A stretch of DNA of 58,602 nt from positions 1 to 58,602 of the IMG/VR virus record IMGVR_UViG_3300006893_000009. One strand, written 5' to 3'. Every line of letters starts with the position of its first letter. The stretch's first letter is position 1. Both the position numbers and the translations under genes were made by a program. The DNA comes from a virus (lineage: Duplodnaviria; Caudoviricetes). The notes below the pieces were generated by a model. It was not told where the DNA came from. It ran no database searches and saw only the letters and a program-made list of their open reading frames with translations. Below are positions 3,001 to 27,776 of this stretch, in pieces.

Positions 3001-4535
3001 GTCCGCGCATTCTGTCTGATGTGAAAATCTCTGGCAACTGGATGAAGTTCGGTCGGCTGTGGGGTAAGAATCTTGTTGGCTCTCTTACCAAGTCCCCTGA
3101 ATGGCAAGAAGCTATTCAACAAGGTTACCTATTCTCTGGGCTACAACGTCTTATAACTCCAGAGATGAAATTGGAGACCGCATCACTTGGAGTTGGTCAG
3201 AAGATTGCTAAGTTCCGCTTGCTGTCTGCTGCGGAAGATTTGGCGGCAGCCCGTGCTGATGCTGTTAAGATGACTACTTTCCAAATGCTTCGTGAGCAAG
3301 GCTACTCTGAAAAAGCAGCCCGCTACGAGACCAAACGCTATGGTGGTATGCCTGACTACTCTCAGTCTGGTGACTTGCATCCTGCAATCAGACTAGCTAC
3401 AGTATTCTTTAACGCTGACCTACAACACTTGGGTCAGACTATGAGCCGTTTGGCTGACAAGCCTGAGCGCATCCTGCCCATTCTGGGAAGCCTGACTGCC
3501 ATGACAATGGCCCTCTCCACTTGGAACTACTCACACAAGGATGAAGATGGTCAACCGCTCATGCGCAGAGTCCCTGCTGATGAACGCGACCGGAACTTTA
3601 TTATCTTGACTGGTGGCACTCATCCCACCTCTAGTGGGTCCTATACGCCCAATAGATTGTCTGTTCGTAAGCCTGACATCATCATGTACACCATCAACCC
3701 TGTTGAGAATGCTTTGAACAAGGCAATTGGGTTTGAGAATCGTAAGGCTATTGAGATTGCAGCCGACGCCATTAAGGGTTTGACACCGTTCTCTCATGGC
3801 TCTATTACAGCCGAACATCCTGTTAGGGACGCTGCACGTTCAATTGGTGGCTCTATTAACCCGCTGGTTAGAGTGCCTCTTGAAGAGGCTGCGAATAAGC
3901 AGTTTGGTACAGGCTCGCCCATTGTAAGCCGTCCAAGCATCGCTCCTCAATATCAAGCTACGGCTGGCACACCATCTGTTTATCAACAGATGGGTCAAGC
4001 TACAGGTACATCTCCTCAACGTCTACAACACATTGCAGGGGGACTGACTGGCGGCTTGGCTGATGCTGTTGCACAACAGATGGACCCGTATGTTCGTCAA
4101 GGCGCTGCTGGCCCACTCAAGGGAACGCAAGGCGCTAGGCGTCAGCTTCCTGTCATTGGTCAGGCTGCTGCCAGACTCACTGGAGGTAACGTGGACGCTG
4201 TTGAACAGCAGGCTACCACTAAATTCTATGACCGCTTGGAGCAAACTAAGGAAGCTCAACAGACCTTTGATTACCTCAAGAAGTCCAATCCGCAAAAGGC
4301 TCAGGAGTTCTTACAGAGCAACCGTAATCTAATCAGTACTTCAGGCTTTACAAATAGAGCTGCTATCCAATTGGGTAAGCTCGCACAGATGCGTTCGGAA
4401 ATCCAAACCAACCCGAACATCTCTGATGAAGACAAGACCAAGCAACTTGCGAACATTGCAAAAGCTCGCATCACTTACATGAATGCGTACAACGAAGCAC
4501 TGGACAGAGTTCTTTCTCAAGGAGCAAATAAATGA
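15..4535 (+). CDS. C-terminal 1506 aa of a giant internal virion/DNA-ejection polyvalent protein (begins at 57046); LPD38-like C-terminus
   Basis: In frame with 57046-58602 across the junction (..NFKQLVD|LKNAREAA..). C-terminal PDYSQSG..FFNA..ERDRNFIIL..NPLVRVPLEEAANKQFGTGSPI..SPQRLQHI resembles LPD38. Last of the ejection-gene block. Confidence 0.75.
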   Translation: MKNAREAARDDNAKQLIEEQIKGSLARVSQIQDLRMQAVGVDGLQALRDEHFQRSDWYKSRAEGINKLQDLTERNAKTAEQISQDRATQPQAEAINPETGEAMALEQGAPMRPLSRSIFDLLQNRKPRYTLDDLQVNQPKEGVTPEEWKTFTDGMMTDLKTRYASIVRDISIHQDVGGGADLEDTDIPDRMKELDADASMIGQFDKHLREQKRAGIRVDVGRRPHLEPPVNADGTIKDPAALWKMDGATWARIKGSKSTSRSIPEATEVRQFARDQAAFGQLHDMARAHVDQTLNPLRATARQVLDNMQPAANPEAGFAGERAPESYEIPSVDEILKRAKSAGIDVVTNITRDGKTPNYGWLAPDGKSALDLHEVMHVGAAGQILPELGNGFAAQTAMLDAGWIRKASHQYFEVGELTDKTVDTIETDTILSGRHGHSLIVDTKGDQGNIQPLSIDREWQDGSLKKAIKQAKARQRWLEPQPHVIDLSDEAGRVPGAVNLGAASIGAVGGHIVGLHAGGPVGALIGAVSGFTLGYISPELIRSRFVQRAFSAMEPVLKAAGIDAKSWVMGYKAPDAILPEMKDIIDQQRRDPEGSGLGFLERMSQLPTDARRYLFNKFAILDDQRTPGLTSMLSKYDPRIPVGARPSVDASPYVSLADAAGQISGRKDFNIIQFSSIYHDAMQAGLDTHLMEYLNLKGYKRVFDVMEERVRNGVAQLKQIDQKLQDPKLSMKDRVGLQSDRDTVKQDANEAWNKLSGKVEAVPGGYTPQSINDGFQKLAQTLGPDAMQKIDGWAQQVFKYGRQSLDMAHDNGVVSDAVYKKLIARGDEYINMSRIMSDLADNYSRFDKLGKASPMYVSKQNIIRNLEGSERVNQNPLKANMMINNEMMSEAIRNKVVGEFVQTATANPDMYGDSFKKVGPNYKPLKGEAIVTHYVDGKPQLYKVGEDVYQALQGAAPINHDIVSKAMQSFYNVFRAGATGLNLGFQLAALPTDIMRPRILSDVKISGNWMKFGRLWGKNLVGSLTKSPEWQEAIQQGYLFSGLQRLITPEMKLETASLGVGQKIAKFRLLSAAEDLAAARADAVKMTTFQMLREQGYSEKAARYETKRYGGMPDYSQSGDLHPAIRLATVFFNADLQHLGQTMSRLADKPERILPILGSLTAMTMALSTWNYSHKDEDGQPLMRRVPADERDRNFIILTGGTHPTSSGSYTPNRLSVRKPDIIMYTINPVENALNKAIGFENRKAIEIAADAIKGLTPFSHGSITAEHPVRDAARSIGGSINPLVRVPLEEAANKQFGTGSPIVSRPSIAPQYQATAGTPSVYQQMGQATGTSPQRLQHIAGGLTGGLADAVAQQMDPYVRQGAAGPLKGTQGARRQLPVIGQAAARLTGGNVDAVEQQATTKFYDRLEQTKEAQQTFDYLKKSNPQKAQEFLQSNRNLISTSGFTNRAAIQLGKLAQMRSEIQTNPNISDEDKTKQLANIAKARITYMNAYNEALDRVLSQGANK

Positions 4536-4866
4536 ACATCTACATCGCATTAGCTAGTGTTGCTGTCGCTGTAGGTGCAGCCGGACAATTTGCTGACGCA
4601 TACACGACGTATCAAGGCGTTAAGAAATTTGGTCCAAGCATTGAAGGCGACCAGAACTGGCTTGCTCAGTTTATCGTTAATCACTTCCCTTGGTCTATGG
4701 CTATCAAACCCGCAGGGATGGTTGGAATCGGCGCACTGTTGATTGCCATTAGCCCTCAATCAACGGTGGTGGATTAGCCCTAGCTGGTATCCTTGGGACT
4801 GCCTCAGCTATCATCAGCTTCGTTACCGCACGCGACAATAGCAACATCAACGCTACAAAGTCATAG
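4532..4866 (+). CDS. DUF5658-like membrane protein, apparently frameshifted near 4758
   Basis: Hydrophobic helices and DAYTT..G..EG motif; the -1 frame continues NGGGLALAGILGTASAIISF..TKS* to TAG at 4866. Confidence 0.5.
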
Positions 4867-11645: not shown

Positions 11646-11721
11646 TGGCTGGCCCCCTCAGACTCGAACTGAGACAGTCTCCGTTAACAGCGGAGTGCAC
11701 TACCGATTATGCTAGAGGCCA
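11646..11721 (-). tRNA. tRNA-Asn (GUU) with encoded CCA
   Basis: Acceptor TGGCCTC/GGGGCCA, anticodon arm CTCCG-CTGTTAA-CGGAG, T arm CTCAG-TTCGAGT-CTGAG, 3' GCCA; 76 nt. Confidence 0.95.
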
Positions 11722-19249: not shown

Positions 19250-20011
19250 CTATAGAGCCTCAGCCCAATCATGGACACTTTTTGCCAAACGAATCCCGCT
19301 GACACGTTCCAGACTGGAGATGTCTGGCATGGAATTGACTTCAAGGATATATGTCCCATTCGTAGGGTGTACCAGTACATCGACAGCCCCAAAGTCCATT
19401 TTCAAAGTCTTGACAGCCTTAACCGCTTGAAAACACATTTGGGACATCATCAAAAGGTCGTCCCGCTTTTCAGAACGGTATTCCATTGTCTTGAAATTCA
19501 TGACGCTTGGATTCTTGTACTTCTTCTCATAAGCCGCGAACACTTTTTCCTTGTAAACCCACAACCGTAATTCCATCGTGTGTGGTACATAAACAGAGAA
19601 GAATTCTTTCTTACCTTCCTCAACAATCGTTTGCACTTGCGAAAACTTTTCGCACAACTCTATGTCAAGACCCTTTTCGTGGTGGAAGTTCCGTGCGAAC
19701 CAAGGCTTCGACAGCTCGAAAAGCTTGTGGCTCATCAAGGCGACGGCTGGACTAATGAGCTTGGGAATCTTCAATCCCGCTTCGTCAAACAGGAGCATAG
19801 CCTCGAACTTGTTGAAAATATTGACGTTAGCATTGAGAGCCGGGACATTTTTGACATACGCATCACGGGTTGAGCAGCCCCAACACAGGATGCAATCGTA
19901 ATCTTCCTGCTTTGACCGGACTACCTTATGTCCATATTCCTCAAGGTGTGTTTGCATCACCTTGACCCCGGATTCTTCCTTTGCACCACCACGAATGTAA
20001 ATCTTTTTCAT
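19250..20011 (-). CDS. ATP-grasp ligase (RimK/YheCD-like)
   Basis: WG..NK..ELRLWV..AVKTLKMDFGAVDV..ILEVNSMP. Confidence 0.85.
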   Translation of the reverse strand: MKKIYIRGGAKEESGVKVMQTHLEEYGHKVVRSKQEDYDCILCWGCSTRDAYVKNVPALNANVNIFNKFEAMLLFDEAGLKIPKLISPAVALMSHKLFELSKPWFARNFHHEKGLDIELCEKFSQVQTIVEEGKKEFFSVYVPHTMELRLWVYKEKVFAAYEKKYKNPSVMNFKTMEYRSEKRDDLLMMSQMCFQAVKAVKTLKMDFGAVDVLVHPTNGTYILEVNSMPDISSLERVSGIRLAKSVHDWAEAL

Positions 20012-20012
20012 G

Positions 20013-21035
20013 CTAGTTCACCCCTTTTCCTTTGTATGCCTCCCGACGGTCAATCGAAACCAAAAGTGTCCCGCAACCACCTTCATCCTTATTGCAAGAA
20101 AAATTTCCCGCAACTTCTCCCTTCGGAATACGCCATTCCTTGAAGCAATTGGGACACGCTGCTAAATCTGTATCAACCTTGACATTGCCCTTGGTGCGAA
20201 CTTTATTGCGTACATCAGAATCCCACTTCTTTTGTCTATCTTCATATCCTTGGTACGTCATACGAATAGGTTCGTGATAATTTCCCGTCATGGTCTTGAA
20301 TTCGTAGTGCGCTTCATGACCACCCGGCCCCATAATCCAAGCCGTGTTATCAGCCATTGGTGCGAGAGCTGCGTGAGACTTTTCAAGCTGAAACCATACA
20401 CCAAACCTCTTAATATACGGCTTCATGGACTTGTAAACCGCTCCACGCTCTGAAGAGAATGAGAAGAAATTCTCTGTGGAACCCAATATCATTGGCGAGC
20501 CTGACCGAAACAAGAGCATTTTTTTGGGCTGGCGACTATCAAACGCTGCCCCAGAACAACTCCCAGACACCTTATTCAAAGTCTTAATAGCCTTCTCATT
20601 GATACCCGTGCTGTCAATAATGGCTCGAAGAATGTCTGAGTCAACTTCACCCACTCTTGTCAAGTTCAGACTAGAGAAAAGTGAGTCGTCATTGCTCAAA
20701 GTACCATTGTGAATGACAGCACTCTTACCAGCGAACAACGGATGGTTATTGTTGTTGTCCTTCGGTGAACCCTTGGTTGCATAGCGCGTATGAACCAAGG
20801 CTCCCCAAGTGTCTTTCTTCAAATACTTCTCAATGAAGTTCTCATACTCTTTAGTGCCGATGAATTGACAGGCTGGCGTATTGATTTTTAAAACATTCAG
20901 CTTGCCATCAACTTGAGACAGCACCACTCCAGAGGCATCATTACCGCGATGCTCATTGCCGTTAAGCAAGTGAGCAATCATTTCCTCTGTGATAGGTTCG
21001 TCTTTGTACCTAATCACTCCGCCTATGCCGCAAAT
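20013..21035 (-). CDS. Class II (Ntn) glutamine amidotransferase with C-terminal Zn ribbon; probable AUU start
   Basis: CGIGG, HRGNDASG, HTRYATKG, NNHP, HNG, VDSD; GGAGGG SD 7 nt before ATT-TGC. Confidence 0.88.
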   Translation of the reverse strand: MCGIGGVIRYKDEPITEEMIAHLLNGNEHRGNDASGVVLSQVDGKLNVLKINTPACQFIGTKEYENFIEKYLKKDTWGALVHTRYATKGSPKDNNNNHPLFAGKSAVIHNGTLSNDDSLFSSLNLTRVGEVDSDILRAIIDSTGINEKAIKTLNKVSGSCSGAAFDSRQPKKMLLFRSGSPMILGSTENFFSFSSERGAVYKSMKPYIKRFGVWFQLEKSHAALAPMADNTAWIMGPGGHEAHYEFKTMTGNYHEPIRMTYQGYEDRQKKWDSDVRNKVRTKGNVKVDTDLAACPNCFKEWRIPKGEVAGNFSCNKDEGGCGTLLVSIDRREAYKGKGVN

Positions 21036-21039
21036 ATAG

Positions 21040-21126
21040 CTACCCTCCAAGCTCTTTTTGAGCAGTTAAACGTGTCCACTGTTCACTTAGTGCAGTTTCC
21101 GTTCTATGACAGTTGGTACACACCAT
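21040..21126 (-). CDS. 28-aa coupled micro-ORF (not in ORF track)
   Basis: TGATG overlap with the ligase stop; MVCTNCHRTETALSEQWTRLTAQKELGG; stop 4 nt before the GATase ATT. Confidence 0.35.
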   Translation of the reverse strand: MVCTNCHRTETALSEQWTRLTAQKELGG

Positions 21127-22718
21127 CAAAAAGCAACATTCCCATTCACCTCAATTGCTTTCTTTTTGTGCTTCTTAACAATATCGTCTGGCTTCGGTGC
21201 CTCTTGACTCCCAAACTCACCAAGCATGGTTCCGATTAGCTTCTCTTCTGACTTTTTTTTAACCTTGAGGTACTCAGAAGGTTGGATGTCAGCAATCTTT
21301 TCATACGAAGTAATTGGAAAGAGTCCTGATTTGCACAAGAAAGTTTTCCACTTTGCTACGATACCCCGGTCAACTACATAGTTCTTCGCAATATCGGGCG
21401 GAATATAGATTGTTATTCTTTCAGTGTCATGTGTTTGAAGGAAGTGTAGTTTCTTACCGCTGAAAAGCTTTTCAAACTGAGCGCGCACGTTAAAGCCATT
21501 AAATTCATATTTGTCAGGAAGTACGATACCCGCCGACGAACTTGCGAACGTAACTTCAATCCCCTTTGAAAGCAAGCCCGCTGCAACCTCTGGCAGCCCC
21601 GGAACATGTGGTGGAATCTCAATAGGGAACACGTCCGCAGCTAAATGATACGGACTCCACGTTGGCTTAGGAAAATAGAATTCCAACGGAGTTCCTTCCG
21701 TAAGATATTGGAACAATTCATCGCAAGTATCTTCTGTCGGCGCAATGACAGGCGGATAATATCTACGTCCCTTTGCAATAGCTGGCTTTATAACATCTTT
21801 CTTTGTAGAAATCCCCCACGCCTTCTTGAAATCCGCTCCGCTGTACATGGGCATTCCATGTAGATACAATCCCACAAGCGCGATTCTAGCATCATCATCC
21901 ACATTGGCATACGCTCGTAAGAGATTCTCAACTGTCTGCCGACTCGCACCATCAGTAAAAGGATTGGATGCCATAGTCTCATTCAGTTGATGGAACGTAC
22001 AAAGCTTGGCAAGAGTTATTGTAAGAAACGCACTCCACGGTGAGTCTAACCATGTTGGCATGGTACGATATTCAAAGCCATGTGGTTGAAGTCTATAATC
22101 TCCGGGCTTGCCGTAATTTGTGCCACTTTGTCGAGCGAGTGACCCTTGTTTGTCAACCACATTTGTAGCAACAAGAAGCTTCGTTAAATGGTCAAGACTC
22201 GAAAGTGTTGGTTTAATCGCATCTTTCTTCTGTTTCCCAAAGTGAATGTGTCCACCGCATCCATCTGGCGCGCAGAATCCCGGCGCTTTCCAAGCATAGC
22301 TATAAAGTTTTGGGTTGTCATCAACCATATGCCGGAAGCAATCTACGATAGACGCAACAACCTCAAGCACGCTTTTGCTTGGATAAGCACGAATTTCTGC
22401 TTGGCGGCCTGTCATGTCAGCACCAAAAGCTTTAAGCGTATTAAGCCCCAAATTCTTTGTATAAATATAAGGCGTTCCACTTTGCGGATGAGCAAAGACA
22501 AACTCTGGGTCAGCGCCAACACTGAAGCGATTTACATGCCTTGGATTCTCGCTTCGCTTACATTTGGGCGCACCAAAGTATCTATTGCCCCATCGCTTAA
22601 GTATGTCATCTGGCGCAGCAATCCCTTGCTTGTGTGCAAACTCCATAAACTCATCTTTGCTGATTCTATGGTTTATGACCAACTCCATCAAACGTCTTTT
22701 TTCATCAGCGAATTGCAT
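21126..22718 (-). CDS. phiEco32-like COOH-NH2 ligase type 2 (copy 1, with C-terminal extension)
   Basis: GADPEF, AEIRAYP, GGHIHFG, YGKPGDYRLQPHGFEYRT. Confidence 0.88.
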   Translation of the reverse strand: MQFADEKRRLMELVINHRISKDEFMEFAHKQGIAAPDDILKRWGNRYFGAPKCKRSENPRHVNRFSVGADPEFVFAHPQSGTPYIYTKNLGLNTLKAFGADMTGRQAEIRAYPSKSVLEVVASIVDCFRHMVDDNPKLYSYAWKAPGFCAPDGCGGHIHFGKQKKDAIKPTLSSLDHLTKLLVATNVVDKQGSLARQSGTNYGKPGDYRLQPHGFEYRTMPTWLDSPWSAFLTITLAKLCTFHQLNETMASNPFTDGASRQTVENLLRAYANVDDDARIALVGLYLHGMPMYSGADFKKAWGISTKKDVIKPAIAKGRRYYPPVIAPTEDTCDELFQYLTEGTPLEFYFPKPTWSPYHLAADVFPIEIPPHVPGLPEVAAGLLSKGIEVTFASSSAGIVLPDKYEFNGFNVRAQFEKLFSGKKLHFLQTHDTERITIYIPPDIAKNYVVDRGIVAKWKTFLCKSGLFPITSYEKIADIQPSEYLKVKKKSEEKLIGTMLGEFGSQEAPKPDDIVKKHKKKAIEVNGNVAF

Positions 22719-23263
22719 TATACTGGCTCCCCTGTTGCCATTGAACCAATCTTAAGAGCGAAATTGAGCGAGTCTGGTTGCGCAGTTCCATGCATCCACG
22801 CTTCCTCACAAACTGAACTACACATTGGAACACCCCAACACTTCTTGAGTGTTTTGGCATCACAAATCGCACACTTCATATCTCGAAGTAGCAATTGATA
22901 AGCATTGGTCAGCTTACGATAGCAATTATTCTCAGCAGCGTGTGTCTTTCTTGGCGCACAGACACCAGTAACTCTACCACAGCATCTACACTCAGCACAG
23001 GCTGGCTTGTTACCAAGAAACTCAACTGCCCAATAACGGTATTCCCAGTTCTCAAACTTGAGAAGCGTATCGGCAAAGACCATCTCTTGTCTTTGGGTGA
23101 ACCCTTCACCTTGCTTCTTTACGTCACCAGCAATGTGATAGTTAGGGAAACCAACTACCTTTTTCGTCTTGGCTTCAACCAAGAGAATCCGCTTGGGCAA
23201 ACGCTCACCTGCACGCTCATGAGCCTTACGAATTAGCCAGCGCGGGACTTGGAGCACACTCAT
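22718..23263 (-). CDS. Cys-rich Zn-binding hypothetical protein
   Basis: ECRCCG..H..C, CAICD..WGVPMCSSVC. Confidence 0.65.
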   Translation of the reverse strand: MSVLQVPRWLIRKAHERAGERLPKRILLVEAKTKKVVGFPNYHIAGDVKKQGEGFTQRQEMVFADTLLKFENWEYRYWAVEFLGNKPACAECRCCGRVTGVCAPRKTHAAENNCYRKLTNAYQLLLRDMKCAICDAKTLKKCWGVPMCSSVCEEAWMHGTAQPDSLNFALKIGSMATGEPV

Positions 23264-23730
23264 AGATACCCCTTGATGATGTCTGGTGCATTTATTATCG
23301 TGACTCTCTGCCTGAACAACCAGCGATAAGGTTTACACCCCATAGGACGCCTGTGCTGGACTAATTTGTTATCGAACCAGACCAACTGTCGCGGTTCAGA
23401 CTGATAAATCTTGCCTTTGTACTGAATCTCGGTGGGCGAACTGCTAGCCCAAGTGACAATTCCGCAGTTCATGTCAGCACCTTGAGTTGTGTCTCCGTCT
23501 TGGTGCCAATCTTCGGCCTTCTTCGTGTCAAAGGTATACGTCCGCATCTCAGCATGGAGAGCCTTACTAAACCAATCCACTGTTTCCAATGGCCCATGCT
23601 TCGGGTCATAGTGAGGCATGAAGCCAATTGAATAGGTTTCATCAGTAAATAGCTTACCCATTCTCTTGGCGTCCCAATCTGAATCATAACGCGGACTGTA
23701 ATAGCCTAACACAACAAAGGGCTGTTTCAA
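23260..23730 (-). CDS. Putative 2OG-Fe(II) dioxygenase-like (DSBH) protein
   Basis: WHQDG (HxD), distal HRRP and RWLFR. Confidence 0.5.
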   Translation of the reverse strand: MKQPFVVLGYYSPRYDSDWDAKRMGKLFTDETYSIGFMPHYDPKHGPLETVDWFSKALHAEMRTYTFDTKKAEDWHQDGDTTQGADMNCGIVTWASSSPTEIQYKGKIYQSEPRQLVWFDNKLVQHRRPMGCKPYRWLFRQRVTIINAPDIIKGYL

Positions 23731-23754
23731 CTTTATCTCCTAAAGAATTCTTTC
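23731..23754 (-). repeat. 24-bp direct repeat covering an RBS, copy 1
   Basis: CTTTATCTCCTAAAGAATTCTTTC, identical at 25331-25354. Confidence 0.85.
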
Positions 23755-24204
23755 CCAAAGGTCAAAGTGGCCATGATGCTCAATACCGGGAAAAGACCCT
23801 AAAACTTTCCAATCGTTATTAAGCAGGAGAGAAATCTCCTCCTTATTGGCTTCATCAACTGTTGCCATCAACCTTGTAAAACCAACAAGACATGCTGCCT
23901 TAACCTTCAAATTGTTAAGCTCAGTCCCAATTCCCTTCTTACGGAACTCATTCTCAACGTACATATTGTGTGACCAACAAATTGCTTCACACATTGGAGC
24001 TTGTGAAAGCTTAAATTGTGCTACAAACTTTGGTTCCAGGAGTGTTCTCAATGTGGCATTGACGCATCTATCCCCTTCAATCACATACACCGTTAATGTA
24101 TATTGAAAAGACAGGCCGCAACCTTTGAACACTAGTTCCAGTGCCGCTTTAAGTCTATCTCCCATATTCGCGGATATGTCTGCGACGACTTCCATCTCTT
24201 TCAT
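23740..24204 (-). CDS. GNAT-family acetyltransferase
   Basis: YVENEFRKKGIGT (RxxGxG), ATV..N..W. Confidence 0.8.
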   Translation of the reverse strand: MKEMEVVADISANMGDRLKAALELVFKGCGLSFQYTLTVYVIEGDRCVNATLRTLLEPKFVAQFKLSQAPMCEAICWSHNMYVENEFRKKGIGTELNNLKVKAACLVGFTRLMATVDEANKEEISLLLNNDWKVLGSFPGIEHHGHFDLWERIL

Positions 24205-24219
24205 GTTCTCTCCTTAAAG

Positions 24220-24482
24220 AAAAGTGTTGAAGAGGCTGACCCAACATACAGCCTCCCCTCAACATTGGCTCTGACCGTTTATATTCGCGGACGCCCTTAA
24301 CCGTCGCTAAGGTGTCAGTTAGCCAGCTACTTAGCCACCCTAAAGCGGGCTTTCGCCTATTGCCGCTAGGCGTTTGAGCAGATTATTCAGCCGCTCGCAC
24401 ACGCCATGCCCATTACAGGCTTCTGCCAACCTATTGGTTGGACTTAAACTTGTGCAGCTAAGACCCATTATAAGGTGGGTCT
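24220..24482 (-). ncRNA. Unclassified structured RNA B ending in a terminator-like hairpin
   Basis: ORF-free; stems AGCUGC/GUAGCU, CCAACC/GGUUGG, GGC-GAAA-GCC, GGCU..CUGAC/GUCAG.AGCC, GUUGA..GAGGCUG/CAGCCUC.UCAAC followed by UUUUCUUU. Confidence 0.55.
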
Positions 24483-24651
24483 AGTACTTCGGGTCTGGCC
24501 AAACTGTGTCAATATATTTGGCAAGTATCTTCATAACTGCAATCGTGCCCCATTTAAGAGCATAAGCTTGTACAATCTTGAGCATCTTTCGATTTGCTGC
24601 TGCTTTGTCACGCTTAAACCGTGACATTGAAGTGAATTTGTATGCTTTCAT
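24481..24651 (-). CDS. Small basic protein (not in ORF track)
   Basis: MKAYKFTSMSRFKRDKAAANRKMLKIV..; ATGA overlap with GGCT. Confidence 0.5.
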   Translation of the reverse strand: MKAYKFTSMSRFKRDKAAANRKMLKIVQAYALKWGTIAVMKILAKYIDTVWPDPKY

Positions 24652-25151
24652 CCTTCACCGCCCATCTCAAAATCACCACCAATCTCATATTCAGGAAACA
24701 AGTAATCATCCCTGTCAGACTTCAACGAAATGTTTGGCGGGTCTTGCTCAAAGCATCCACCCGGAATCGCGCTTGCATAAGCCATCCCCGGATACGTATG
24801 TTCATAAACCCACGCTGGCACTACGCCTTCAACAATGCTCGCATCCTCAGCGAACACATTCACATCCACCATCTTGCGCGTATAGGTAAACCCATTGTTT
24901 TCAAGGTAATCCAGCCACGGCCAAAGATACGTCGGCACCCTGAACAGTTCCCCATAAGCTATCTGGGAAACATCTTTCTCAAATCTCAAACCCACGCCAC
25001 CTCCAATGGGTCTTAGACTAGCGCCTTCTATGGCTGCAAGTCCAATAAACTGTGCTTGATGCTTCTCAAGGTCAAGCTGGAACCCGCGCTTGAGTATTCC
25101 GTAAACAAATAAATTCTCATGCTTGTATGTATCTTTGTCGTATTGTGTCAT
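24648..25151 (-). CDS. Gamma-glutamylcyclotransferase (AIG2-like)
   Basis: LFVYGILKRG, YGELF, LDYLE..Y.R, AWVY. Confidence 0.85.
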   Translation of the reverse strand: MTQYDKDTYKHENLFVYGILKRGFQLDLEKHQAQFIGLAAIEGASLRPIGGGVGLRFEKDVSQIAYGELFRVPTYLWPWLDYLENNGFTYTRKMVDVNVFAEDASIVEGVVPAWVYEHTYPGMAYASAIPGGCFEQDPPNISLKSDRDDYLFPEYEIGGDFEMGGEG

Positions 25152-25330
25152 CGTTGTATCCCATGAGACGGATTGCGCTTTGCTGGCACGCTGTACTCCA
25201 CCTTAGGGCACTCTTGGCCACACTGAATTTCTTCGGTAAGCACCCTTTCACAAAGCGCAAGCTTGGCTGTACGTGGCATAACCTTCTCAAACATGCCATG
25301 TTGTTCGCACATGAATTCAAAAATTGGCAC
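25148..25330 (-). CDS. FmdB-like zinc-ribbon protein
   Basis: MPIFEFMCEQHGMFE..C..CG. Confidence 0.7.
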   Translation of the reverse strand: MPIFEFMCEQHGMFEKVMPRTAKLALCERVLTEEIQCGQECPKVEYSVPAKRNPSHGIQR

Positions 25331-25354
25331 CTTTATCTCCTAAAGAATTCTTTC
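25331..25354 (-). repeat. 24-bp direct repeat covering an RBS, copy 2
   Basis: Identical to 23731-23754. Confidence 0.85.
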
Positions 25355-25599
25355 GCCGCTGAGCGTAGGGTTGTGTCCAGTCCTAATGCTCATTGAGGCC
25401 CGGATGTACATACCACAACGCTTCAACACGGGCCTCAATGCTTAGTGACCCGCTCCGCGCCGCTTAACGGTATATTACATTGTACCTTAACTTGCATAGT
25501 GACAATACGCTGTCAGTCTCCCGACCAACATCGACCCATATAGGGCCGCTGCTATACCACCACCGTTAGGACGCGTTTGCATCCTATCCAGCGGCGAAA
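25351..25599 (-). ncRNA. Unclassified structured RNA A (~250 nt)
   Basis: Closed by perfect 11-bp UUUCGCCGCUG/CAGCGGCGAAA; internal 12-bp CAUUGAGGCCCG/CGGGCCUCAAUG, AGGAUGC/GCGUCCU, UAACGGU/ACCGUUA, GUC-GGGA-GAC, UGACA/UGUCA. Confidence 0.65.
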
Positions 25600-25603
25600 C
25601 TTG

Positions 25604-25846
25604 TTAGCTAATCTCGCCCATGAGCCAAAACATATCGCCTTGAGACTCATTAAACTGTTGGGTCGTCGTGGTACGGTTTTCACACGACAAGGCCATGCAA
25701 ATCTTTTGGCCGCCCACAATCCTTGTTGCAAATCGGCCGCACCTACAGATAAACTTTTGATTGACCGTGCCAATTCCATGACACGTCTCGCAGGGCCGAT
25801 TGCTTACAAACTTCATCCCAAGACAATTTGGGCATCGGACAATCAT
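25604..25846 (-). CDS. DnaJ-type Zn-finger-like small protein
   Basis: CPNCLG..CETCHGIG..CRCG. Confidence 0.6.
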   Translation of the reverse strand: MIVRCPNCLGMKFVSNRPCETCHGIGTVNQKFICRCGRFATRIVGGQKICMALSCENRTTTTQQFNESQGDMFWLMGEIS

Positions 25847-26151
25847 TGAGAAAGTGCCCACTTACGCAGAATTTTGTAATTAGTCCCATAAAAATGTTGG
25901 CAACCAATTTTAATTGACTTAGGGTATCTTGTTACTACTGCCCACTTTCTCCTGTGTCTCAGACCAGAACGATAAGGTATTGTTACATAATTGGTGTACA
26001 ATGGCGTTCGCATTGCAACTCCAATCCATTTGCGTGATGCAGAGTAAGGTGTTTCAGAGTAAAAAATATCGAAAGGATATACAGCCCGTATGTGGCGCGA
26101 ACCCAATTGAAAAACCTCTCCACTCCGCGAAGTAACTATTAATCTTTTCAT
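25843..26151 (-). CDS. Hypothetical basic protein
   Basis: ATGA overlaps on both sides; IKIGCQHF. Confidence 0.55.
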   Translation of the reverse strand: MKRLIVTSRSGEVFQLGSRHIRAVYPFDIFYSETPYSASRKWIGVAMRTPLYTNYVTIPYRSGLRHRRKWAVVTRYPKSIKIGCQHFYGTNYKILRKWALSQ

Positions 26152-27173
26152 GCGATGTGAAACCTCTCATTCTTCAGATTTGCACGCAACTGAATCGTTG
26201 TGTCAACCATATCGTAGCTCCAAAGGCCACCATCAGTCAACTTCCAGTTGCTTTCAATATCTTCAGGAGTTTTTAAGACGCTCTCAATTCCATGCATCCC
26301 AGTCTTGAATAATCTATCACCGGATGACTTTCCAATGAAAGAGAAGAAACTCTTGTTCGCCTTCAAGATTTTCCGTGCTGCGACCACATCCCCTTCGTTG
26401 ATGATTGCCTTAACCTCATCTCCGATTGGATTCCAGTAAATCTTTTCACCATATCTTACATCCATCAGCACCTTTCTTGCAAGCTCAAAGACCATTCGCA
26501 TCACAAATGGTGAGCAAATCCAGAAATTTGATAGCGTTCGATACTCAATTCCATACCGATTGAGTGCATACTTCGGACGGCGATGCTCGCCAGCCTTCCC
26601 ATAATACTGTCGTCGAACTGGACTATCGAAGGATGCTGCTGCTCCTACAGCCCATATCCCCAAAATGGCATCGAAAGTCTTAACCAAATCCTCATACCAC
26701 TTGTTGTCTCTCTTCTCACCAACCTCAAGATGAACATGCCCACCCGCAAATCTATACAACAATGCTCGCGGGTCACCAACATAGAGCCTTTCCTCACCAT
26801 AAGCATTATAGCTTGGCATACATCCAAGCTCTACATAGCCATCAAGCAAGGAATTCATCAACTTTGTAGGAATCTTCACGACGCTATCAAGACTCAACTT
26901 CGCGCTATTATCCCTTGCGCGTGCTTGCTTTAGCAGCTCTTTCAGAAAGTTTTGTTGCAACATAATCATAAAATTGAGACAAGTCCATCCCCGACTCAAC
27001 TTCCACTCAGCTTGAAATCCATCCCAATACAACTCTCCTGAATTAAGTTCAACATCGGGATGTCCCACCTTCAAACCCGCATCCTTTGACGGCAAAAAGT
27101 CAAACGCAGGTAACAATTTTGCCTTACTCTTTACGAAAATTTCAGGGTCACACCCCAACGACGGTTTTACCAT
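26148..27173 (-). CDS. phiEco32-like COOH-NH2 ligase type 2 (copy 2)
   Basis: LGCDPEIF, DGFQAE, LGCMPSYNAY, RFAGGHVH, RRQYYGKAGEHR, GIEYRTLSNFW; GGAGGT SD before ATG 27173. Confidence 0.9.
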   Translation of the reverse strand: MVKPSLGCDPEIFVKSKAKLLPAFDFLPSKDAGLKVGHPDVELNSGELYWDGFQAEWKLSRGWTCLNFMIMLQQNFLKELLKQARARDNSAKLSLDSVVKIPTKLMNSLLDGYVELGCMPSYNAYGEERLYVGDPRALLYRFAGGHVHLEVGEKRDNKWYEDLVKTFDAILGIWAVGAAASFDSPVRRQYYGKAGEHRRPKYALNRYGIEYRTLSNFWICSPFVMRMVFELARKVLMDVRYGEKIYWNPIGDEVKAIINEGDVVAARKILKANKSFFSFIGKSSGDRLFKTGMHGIESVLKTPEDIESNWKLTDGGLWSYDMVDTTIQLRANLKNERFHIA

Positions 27174-27327
27174 CTCCCACCTCCCGTTTAGCCATAGGAA
27201 CTCTTGAAAAAACCCTGACTGCACACTTCGCGTCAGAACAAGTCTCTTTACGAATCAAGCCATCAGTGTGTTTCATTGTCAAATACATAACACCTACTGG
27301 CCCTTTACACCTTGGACAAGTTGTCAT
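27148..27327 (-). CDS. Small Zn-binding protein (not in ORF track)
   Basis: MTTCPRCKGP..TCSDAKC. Confidence 0.45.
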   Translation of the reverse strand: MTTCPRCKGPVGVMYLTMKHTDGLIRKETCSDAKCAVRVFSRVPMAKREVGDGKTVVGV

Positions 27328-27396
27328 TGCTTATTAGCCTTTGCAGCTAGAGCCATCGCACGATAGCGCCAATAGACAGCAGCCGCATACCATGCT

Positions 27397-27776
27397 TCAG
27401 CATTTGCGGTTGTACATACCCAATATTCTCATTTTGTTAGCTACTATAACTTCTCCACCATATTGCTTGCCACGCGTATGTGCCTCTTGGTATTCAACTT
27501 TGAATATGGCCCCATTAACCCAAAGGCGGCGTGCATCTCGCCACTTTTCAAAGATATGAAACCCACTCTTGTATGACAAGAAAGGAAAATCACGGGATAT
27601 GCGAGTCTTTGATGCTTCATACCACAAATTTTGTTTGTAGGTTACATTCGGCAAGACATAATACGCTCTATATAAGGTTTTTGTACCATTGTACACATCA
27701 TAGCTAACTTTGAACACCTTATACCCAACTCCTGCTTTTTTCTAGGCGCGAAAAACTTCACACTATCAAGACACAT
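27397..27776 (-). CDS. Hypothetical protein (MCL..GYKVF..GFH pattern), split at an A-AAA-AAG run
   Basis: Frame 0 MCLDSVKFFAPRKK; the -1 frame continues AGVGYKVFKV..SGFHIF. Confidence 0.5.

Follow-up and report, generated by a model that had tools for sequence, protein, structure and literature searches.

What fills a gap poor in open reading frames (ORFs) between two genes of a phage operon? The gap lies in IMG/VR record IMGVR_UViG_3300006893_000009, a tailed double-stranded DNA phage of 58,602 bases (completeness estimate 91%) that we analysed as a whole and call the window. An earlier note on this DNA had read positions 25351-25599 as a large multi-junction RNA of a new non-coding class. 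We confirmed the observation and found computational support for the reading: comparison with homologues shows that the element is a conserved, sense-strand, non-coding structured RNA with a well-supported fold. It sits within the phiEco32-type amide-ligase cassette of this ~59-kb metagenomic phage. Part of the fold first drawn for it is replaced here by a nested arrangement of helix P1.1, an internal loop and helix P4.

Fold and strand of the RNA

The ORF-poor gap is real and separates an ORF at 25604-25861 from one at 25148-25330, both on the minus strand. The element within it is 249 nt long (25351-25599, minus, the gene strand), as delimited by a script-found closing stem and backed by a covariance-model match and the z score of its fold. 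Its proposed boundaries are exactly those of the closing stem, UUUCGCCGCUG/CAGCGGCGAAA, in which 25588-25599 pairs with 25351-25362 through 11 perfect pairs and one G-U, 12 bp in all. Every feature that the earlier note listed occurs in the sequence, including a 12-bp perfect stem, CAUUGAGGCCCG/CGGGCCUCAAUG (25391-25440), a hairpin at 25511-25530 able to close on a GGGA tetraloop, and the complementarities AGGAUGC/GCGUCCU and GGCCC/GGGUC. On the minus strand the fold reaches -108.5 kcal/mol (z = -4.45), with none of 200 shuffles as low; the plus strand also folds below its shuffles (z = -3.91).

We read the architecture from the ends of 15 full-length family sequences laid side by side (window included; 249-346 nt, only three pairs more than 70% identical). 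This comparison shows a predicted fold that runs from P1 through a 3' bulge, P1.1, a conserved internal loop and P4 to a three-way junction, which bears two arms, one conserved (P2/P2a/P2b) and one long and variable (P3). In the window all of these parts lie on the minus strand. P1 is formed by the 5' strand UUUCGCCGCUGG (25588-25599) and the 3' strand UCAGCGGCGAAA (25351-25362). In 16 family sequences the uninterrupted pairing of this stem reaches 7-25 bp, and its sequence is unrelated from one member to the next; allowing one mismatch lengthens the 7-bp run of locus L130 to 13 positions. The 3'-side bulge that follows is CGC (25363-25365) in the window and GC, CGC, GCG, GA, CGA or GAU among members. 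P1.1 pairs UAGG (25583-25586) with CCUA (25366-25369), and an equivalent of 3-6 bp with differing sequence occurs in all 15 members, as in AUGGAC/GUCCAU (L209), CAGG/CCUG (L229), AAGAA/UUCUU (L195) and CCAGU/ACUGG (L154).

The internal loop (~11x12 nt) is nearly symmetric and is the best-conserved part of the molecule. Its 5' strand, AUGCAAACGC (25573-25582; family consensus AUGYAAACGCG), contains a nearly invariant ACGC, and its 3' strand, UGGACACAAC (25370-25379; consensus YUGGAYACAAC), contains GGA.AC, invariant in alignment A6. The 5' side measures 8-12 nt across the family (33 in L125) and the 3' side 9-15 nt. In L125 a 21-nt hairpin (GAUGAAC...GUUCAUC, ~4455-4478) is inserted in the 5' strand, so that part of the loop tolerates insertion. 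Beyond the loop, P4 pairs GUCCUAA (25566-25572) with UUAGGAC (25380-25386). It has 4-7 bp in the family: CCCGA/UCGGG in L126, CUCGA/UCGAG in L125, UCAGA/UCUGA in L187, AAUUUG/CAAAUU in L129 and CUCUGCU/GGCAGAG in L144.

The P2 arm (25498-25564) is built on P2 itself, in which 25551-25564 pairs with 25498-25510 around one bulged A; across the family P2 has 13 bp and the position of the bulge is conserved. Atop it sits the P2a hairpin (25532-25548; GGCCC/GGGUC in the window, GGCCC/GGGYY with loop UNUAY in the family), and P2b is the hairpin at 25511-25530 that can close on GGGA (family loop AGGGRRA). The P3 arm (25387-25497, 111 nt) holds the 12-bp perfect hairpin at 25391-25440, and its inner fold is partly resolved. 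By the bounds of our script the arm measures 110-209 nt in the family, with recurrent motifs UUAAG...GCGGAG, a GYGUAAAA-like stretch, a UUCG- or CUUG-capped hairpin and GUUGAAG.

Homologues show strand-specific compensatory changes in several helices, the general mark of a conserved structured RNA. Covariation, a check that the earlier note had called for, is strong in P1 with P1.1, in P4, in P2 and at the base of P3. An unfitted MAFFT alignment of the 15 full-length sequences visibly misplaces three divergent rows, and 35 of the 42 pairs of P1, P1.1, P4, P2 and P2a change on both sides in it. There, 74.6% of cells are paired compared with 62.7% in shuffles (0/500 reach the observed value), and 32-53% after a shift of the partners by 1-3 columns, a control that somewhat favours the tested structure because it was written from the window sequence. 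P1 and P1.1 form a duplex of -26.8 kcal/mol from their own strands compared with -10.4 (s.d. 3.9) from strands swapped between members, and in 14 of 15 members no swapped strand, by row or by column, outdoes the own partner; the exception is L130, set against its 83%-identical relative L195. P4, in the 10 members with a fixed register, forms runs of 5-9 bp from its own strands every time, whereas swapped strands average 2.3 bp and reach 5 bp in 20% of cases. Four of five positions in this set alternate among C-G, U-A, U-G and A-U, and in the unfitted alignment both sides change in all seven P4 pairs. The basal stem of P3 behaves similarly (own -17.4 compared with swapped -9.8 kcal/mol, s.d. 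3.3; best in both row and column for 9 of 15). For the P2 domain we used the model-fitted alignment A7, where 92.7% of cells are paired compared with 76.5% in shuffles (0/500 reach); its 16 rows are the 15 members and one probable false row, which weakens the test. All 13 P2 pairs change on both sides there, and 12 of 13 on the unfitted alignment.

The same sequences speak to strand and coding. In the 5' domain of the 15 members, paired cells comprise 233 Watson-Crick, 69 G-U and 4 A-C combinations, and because G-U so far outnumbers A-C the fold belongs to the sense strand; this bears out the earlier proposal that G-U pairs favour the minus strand. Sense minimum free energies lie below antisense ones in 15/15 members (mean difference -26.4 kcal/mol), and each sense frame contains at least two stop codons in every member. 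A DNA-level element, such as an origin, a recombination or packaging site or a mobile inverted-repeat element, or else a chance structure, would suit the inverted repeats at the element's bounds and the fact that both window strands beat their shuffles. We consider it extremely improbable given the strand bias just described, compensatory changes in five helices, a fixed operon position and orientation in all loci, and a single copy in the genome, the covariance model matching the window once.

A different pairing had been drawn for the inner part of the molecule. In the window the two strands of the internal loop are imperfect repeats of one another, and each can therefore fold back on itself, as AGGAUGC/GCGUCCU on the 5' side and as UAGG...CCUA round the CACAAC loop on the 3' side. 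These are two of the hairpins of the earlier note, which are possible in the window but both reach at least 4 bp in just 5 of 15 members; the competing nested pairing of P1.1 and P4 forms in 15/15, and we therefore take the nested form as conserved. Two points count against this fold. A nearest-neighbour model gives the two-hairpin form -103.2 kcal/mol in the window compared with -97.0 for the nested form, so that the comparative fold rests on covariation and not on energy. The family is also small and its members related, and shuffle controls leave phylogeny in. By these model energies the window RNA may be bistable. The hairpin AGGAUGC/GCGUCCU, 'P1a' in our first covariance model (R1), was dropped from the second (R2) once P1.1 and P4 had been recognised.

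The proposed loop-loop contact fared less well than the helices. Its complementarity, GUUGUG/CACAAC, is present, but 10% of P3-arm shuffles also reach 6 bp and the homologues offer no consistent equivalent. We likewise discarded a contact between P3 and the internal loop, for which the best matches were no better than shuffles in most members and fell at differing places. A possible GUGU/ACAC pairing (GCGU/ACGU in L128) is a hint only.

Homologues in uncultured phages

The search for homologues started from the ligase and GGACT (gamma-glutamyl cyclotransferase-like) proteins encoded beside the RNA, and through them we reached one related viral contig that has a similar gap. A profile from 42 ligase relatives then yielded 46 viral loci. 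Covariance model R1, covering the 5' domain and built from five sequences, was run on these loci and the window; it matched the window, L125, L126, L128, L129, L130, L131, L144 and L154, and in every locus the match fell in the gap that follows the ligase. JGI metagenome contigs, scanned with a specific pattern, returned 46 stretches, of which R1 confirmed 10 at E ≤ 7.6e-08. Three of these are contigs already among the viral loci, one (L196) is 99% identical to L131, and six are new (L219, L229, L199, L209, L187 and L195; covariance-model E ≤ 2.2e-08).

With model R2, built from 15 sequences, the divergent members L128, L144 and L154 rose to E ≤ 7.7e-07, and L132 matched weakly (E = 2.2). A structure descriptor that required an AC[GA]C anchor, a GGA.AC anchor, P4, P1.1, P1 and a P2a-like hairpin matched the window and nine loci (including L132, L138, L142 and L155), with no match in shuffled loci; it missed the known members L125, L129 and L131. 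In each of L132, L138, L155 and L142, the helices P1, P1.1, P4 and P2a can be placed by eye. The count of distinct homologues besides the window thus stands at 18: eight found by covariance model in viral contigs, four by descriptor and reading, and six in metagenomes, with the near-copy L196 as a 19th sequence. Each adjoins cassette genes wherever its contig allows. In L155, a tRNA-like gene (4697-4767), to which ARAGORN assigns an odd two-base anticodon, directly follows the RNA.

The family's carriers are uncultured tailed phages of ~55-65 kb that belong to one clade, and the RNA lies within their phiEco32-type amide-ligase cassettes. A blastn comparison of the RNA region with 50,697 phage records gave no match, and the window ligase is at most 30% identical to cultured-phage ligases, so that collection includes no cultured phage of the clade. 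Among viral contigs, a first 14-base pattern was unspecific (at least 120 stretches); a stricter one returned 13 stretches, three of them real and the other ten within a conserved coding gene, and a further scan of 47 stretches added no member. A pattern scan of genome contigs from 185,579 species' genomes returned 16 stretches and no convincing member, and it therefore gave no host or prophage clue. Matches in Variovorax look like chance and were set aside. One stretch in a contig of a Caldilineaceae metagenome-assembled genome (L233, ~2176-2264, minus) resembles the 5' domain (AACGCG... CAGCGGCCCUGCUUGGGCC AAGGAGAG), with E = 0.014 for R1 after pattern pre-selection and E = 0.0096 for R2; matching partners for P1.1 or P4 were not readable in it.

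The zinc-ribbon gene and the amide-ligase cassette

Immediately upstream of the RNA lies a gene that we call Znr (25604-25861, minus), encoding an 85-residue zinc-ribbon protein with eight cysteines (CPxCxG...CxxCxGxG...CxCGRP...C....C), whose UAA stop falls 4 nt before P1. In all 14 loci whose sequence extends upstream of the RNA, Znr precedes it, and in 9 of the 14 the Znr stop lies 4-15 nt before P1 or slightly overlaps the outer end of P1. The positions CP.C.G, C..C, C.C, C and C are invariant in the protein, and CGRP is nearly so. Of the 46 ligase loci, 15 encode Znr, and 12 of the 14 testable ones carry the RNA; L127 was left out because its sequence ends 2 nt after Znr. The RNA was absent from all 31 ligase loci without Znr when searched with R1, R2 and the structure descriptor. 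The six metagenome members had been found via the RNA pattern alone, and cassette genes flank all of them where the contig is long enough. The RNA is tied by position to the zinc-ribbon gene and the amide-ligase cassette.

Several observations speak against a working partnership between RNA and protein. Two Znr loci, L147 and L152, showed no RNA, and the co-occurrence may be simple co-inheritance in one clade. Znr is also weakly similar to the DnaJ zinc finger (PDB 1exk, E = 0.0012) and to anti-TRAP and eL37 (E~0.05), similarities driven by the cysteine pattern. Pfam DnaJ_CXXCXGXG matches 7 of 16 Znr members, and a profile search for Znr relatives found nine proteins only.

Within the phage, terminase, portal and major head genes occupy the plus strand from ~32.7 kb on, and the minus-strand arm, which includes the RNA locus, encodes a DNA polymerase, a Sak4-like annealing protein and an exonuclease. 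We scanned 24000-27500 for sigma-70-like promoters and intrinsic terminators and found none adjoining the RNA; the three promoter-like and two terminator-like sites in this region all lie away from it and are fewer than in shuffles. With neither signal adjoining it, the RNA most simply belongs to the operon transcript. A look-up of sequencing runs that contain this DNA listed one DNA run, which may be the source sample, and no RNA run.

That setting invites comparison with the RNase III R sites of T7-type phages, and the RNA could be a cis-acting processing or stability element between cistrons. In such an element, stacked P1, P1.1 and P4 would form an RNase III-type or exonuclease-blocking structure that splits the early operon mRNA and shields the upstream ligase-Znr segment or the downstream one. 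The RNA resembles R sites in being intercistronic, apparently co-transcribed and located in the early-gene arm of a tailed phage, with its ends joined by a long stem of freely varying sequence; its lack of a promoter or terminator of its own also fits, as does the spacing of 4-15 nt between the Znr stop and its start in most loci. R sites of T7-type phages are short irregular hairpins, and RNase III cleaves within a stem of about two helical turns. P1 and P1.1 together have 16 bp in the window, interrupted by the bulge, and the longest P1 run is below 12 bp in 5 of 16 sequences, short for RNase III. Unlike an R site, the RNA measures 249-346 nt and has two elaborate arms, the conserved P2/P2a/P2b and the 110-209-nt P3, at a three-way junction, besides its conserved ~11x12-nt internal loop; a processing hairpin needs neither this loop nor these arms. 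On balance we regard a processing or stability role as rather unlikely.

The gene that follows the RNA varies from locus to locus (FmdB-like, GGACT, GNAT or small ORFs), and its distance ranges from overlap to several hundred nucleotides. In the window it is an FmdB-like zinc-ribbon ORF of 60 residues (25148-25330, minus), with a GTG start 20 nt after P1 and an AGGAG between the two, outside the fold. The variable next gene and spacing, the missing terminator and promoter and the free AGGAG/GTG disfavour a cis switch. They bear on the idea of a riboswitch-like sensor, in which the internal loop and junction would bind a cassette metabolite such as a gamma-glutamyl compound or an amine and tune the downstream cassette genes. 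Junction-type riboswitch aptamers do resemble the RNA in setting highly conserved unpaired nucleotides of loop and junction among covarying helices, upstream of metabolic genes, here GGACT or GNAT in several loci. The two-hairpin form that competes with P1.1 and P4 in the window could serve as the alternative state; it is kept in just 5 of the 15 members. The RNA differs from such aptamers in its much larger size, its P1 of 9-25 bp, too long and stable for switching, and its lack of an expression platform, there being no terminator-like site near it and no sequestered ribosome-binding site. We judge a sensor decidedly unlikely, and it was set aside as a class assignment.

The cassette marker upstream of the RNA is a phiEco32-like COOH-NH2 ligase type 2 (26148-27224, minus; Pfam PF14395, E = 5.6e-09; PHROG 3815, E = 9.3e-34). 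Downstream on the same strand follow the GGACT gene (24648-25151), which is the first gene after the RNA in several homologues, a GNAT gene (23740-24204) and a second COOH-NH2 ligase gene (21126-22718). ORFs 20013-21050 and 19250-20011 read, from their translations alone, as a class-II glutamine amidotransferase and an ATP-grasp protein. Between the first ligase and Znr, and only in the window, lies a strongly basic ORF of 102 residues (25843-26151, minus) without Pfam or PHROG matches; in the other loci the zinc-ribbon gene directly follows the ligase. The FmdB-like ORF begins MPIFEFMCEQHG, its usual first CxxC being replaced by C..H; it has homologues in L144 and L187, and its adjacency to the RNA is not constant. 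A stretch of 24 nt at 25331-25354 (minus), made up of the last 4 nt of P1 and the AGGAG region, is repeated exactly at 23731-23754 (minus), upstream of a 156-residue ORF (23260-23730). It is the sole recurring part of a 290-nt query covering the RNA and the following ribosome-binding region, and by its sequence it looks like a duplicated translation-initiation region. The window encodes no small peptide ending in GTGE, TGE, GGE or GGQ.

Some loci that lack both RNA and Znr have post-ligase gaps that also fold more stably than expected: L151 4006-4773 (z = -6.4), L161 5000-5579 (z = -7.1), L156 5139-5753 (z = -4.5) and L141 4408-4617 (z = -4.8). None of the four contains a tRNA, and the two family members used as positive controls in this test scored only about -1.9. 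Going by these modelled folds, the gaps may hold other structured RNAs at the amide-ligase cassette, which we offer as a lead only.

Known RNAs and a possible role

The RNA family is not in Rfam and was previously uncatalogued, in agreement with the expectation that no known class would match. Against the 4227 models of Rfam 15, the window at gathering thresholds gave only a tRNA at 11649-11721, and region 25100-25900 gave no match at E ≤ 10. Eight homologue loci searched at E ≤ 5 gave only a tRNA in L128 and a chance match to the SOX2OT long non-coding RNA in L154 (E = 1.2), outside the RNA. None of the titles and abstract openings listed by our literature searches describes an RNA in this cassette. 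A 2023 survey (Fremin et al., PMC10690425) reported 8,495 candidate structured RNAs from IMG/VR, with a mean length of 67 nt. It shares with our family the intergenic IMG/VR source and the use of covariation evidence, and its main text mentions none of the terms ligase, glutamyl, zinc and amidoligase. A fragment of the RNA could be listed without a name among its supplementary models, as our comparison covered the main text.

Four named classes were considered and rejected. A group I intron does not suit the locus, since Znr has a stop codon of its own 4 nt ahead of P1, the gene after the RNA is not the same in all loci, and Intron_gpI gave no match. For a retron or DRT-type non-coding RNA, the 58.6-kb record, estimated as 91% complete, has no match to reverse transcriptase PF00078. 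For a bacterial Y RNA (YrlA), the phage has no match to the Ro/Rsr TROVE domain PF05731, and the Y RNA families gave no match. For the omega or re RNA of IscB-TnpB, PF07282 has no match at E ≤ 0.01, and the neighbouring zinc-ribbon protein has just 80-85 residues.

Other likenesses are matters of shape or setting. Like GOLLD and ROOL, the RNA is phage-borne, has a complex fold with covariation support and is an orphan in function; unlike them it is smaller, lacks an Rfam match and lies between protein genes of one specific enzyme cassette, whereas GOLLD and ROOL are typically found near tRNA genes. 6S RNA, which binds the sigma-70 holoenzyme and templates pRNA from its central bubble, has a comparable long closing helix, a large, roughly symmetric conserved internal loop and a further helix, a likeness of shape only. 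The present RNA differs in having a three-way junction with large arms beyond the loop, and the 6S families of Rfam do not match it. T7 R sites, 6S RNA, riboswitches, internal-loop ribozymes and GOLLD/ROOL are thus analogies for this family, and we claim membership in none.

The internal loop raises the question of catalysis. A ribozyme, self-cleaving or other, would use the conserved loop, docked onto the arms, as its core. Size and complexity fall within the range of large ribozymes, and a near-invariant core (ACGC/GGAYAC) between helices, next to a multi-way junction, is an architecture comparable to that of the hairpin and twister-sister ribozymes. Yet no Rfam ribozyme family matched even at E ≤ 10, and a conserved tertiary pairing could not be demonstrated. 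We think a ribozyme improbable.

The role that we tentatively favour, and hold to be somewhat less likely than not, is that of a stable RNA module that is released from the operon transcript and acts with the zinc-ribbon protein and the cassette. The RNA would be made as part of the operon transcript. With its two ends joined by P1, it would persist as, or be excised as, a stable RNA, and the invariant internal loop would be its working surface. Its likeliest partner would be the 8-Cys zinc-ribbon protein encoded immediately upstream, in an RNA-protein particle that serves the amide-ligase cassette and not as a switch for the next gene. A more intimate arrangement, to which we give only a slim chance, would make the RNA an integral part of the cassette. 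It would then be either a substrate of the ligases, glutamine amidotransferase, ATP-grasp protein and GNAT, as a carrier or acceptor of an amino-acyl or gamma-glutamyl group, or a catalytic or scaffold RNA that brings these enzymes together jointly with the zinc-ribbon protein.

To our knowledge, RNAs longer than 200 nt with complex folds, strong covariation and no known function are rare. Such large orphan RNAs have often proved to be ribozymes or parts of unusual machines. The phiEco32-type amide-ligase cassette occurs in hundreds of phages, and none of the literature titles and abstract openings covered reports a function for it. The family is now directly testable, as its fold is defined and two covariance models and about 19 sequences are at hand. 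Even as a mere processor or stabiliser of mRNA, the RNA would be an unusually elaborate example. If it is a partner, substrate or regulator of the cassette, it would offer a concrete handle on cassette biology, and as a cassette substrate or scaffold it would reveal an RNA-dependent amide-bond system in phages.

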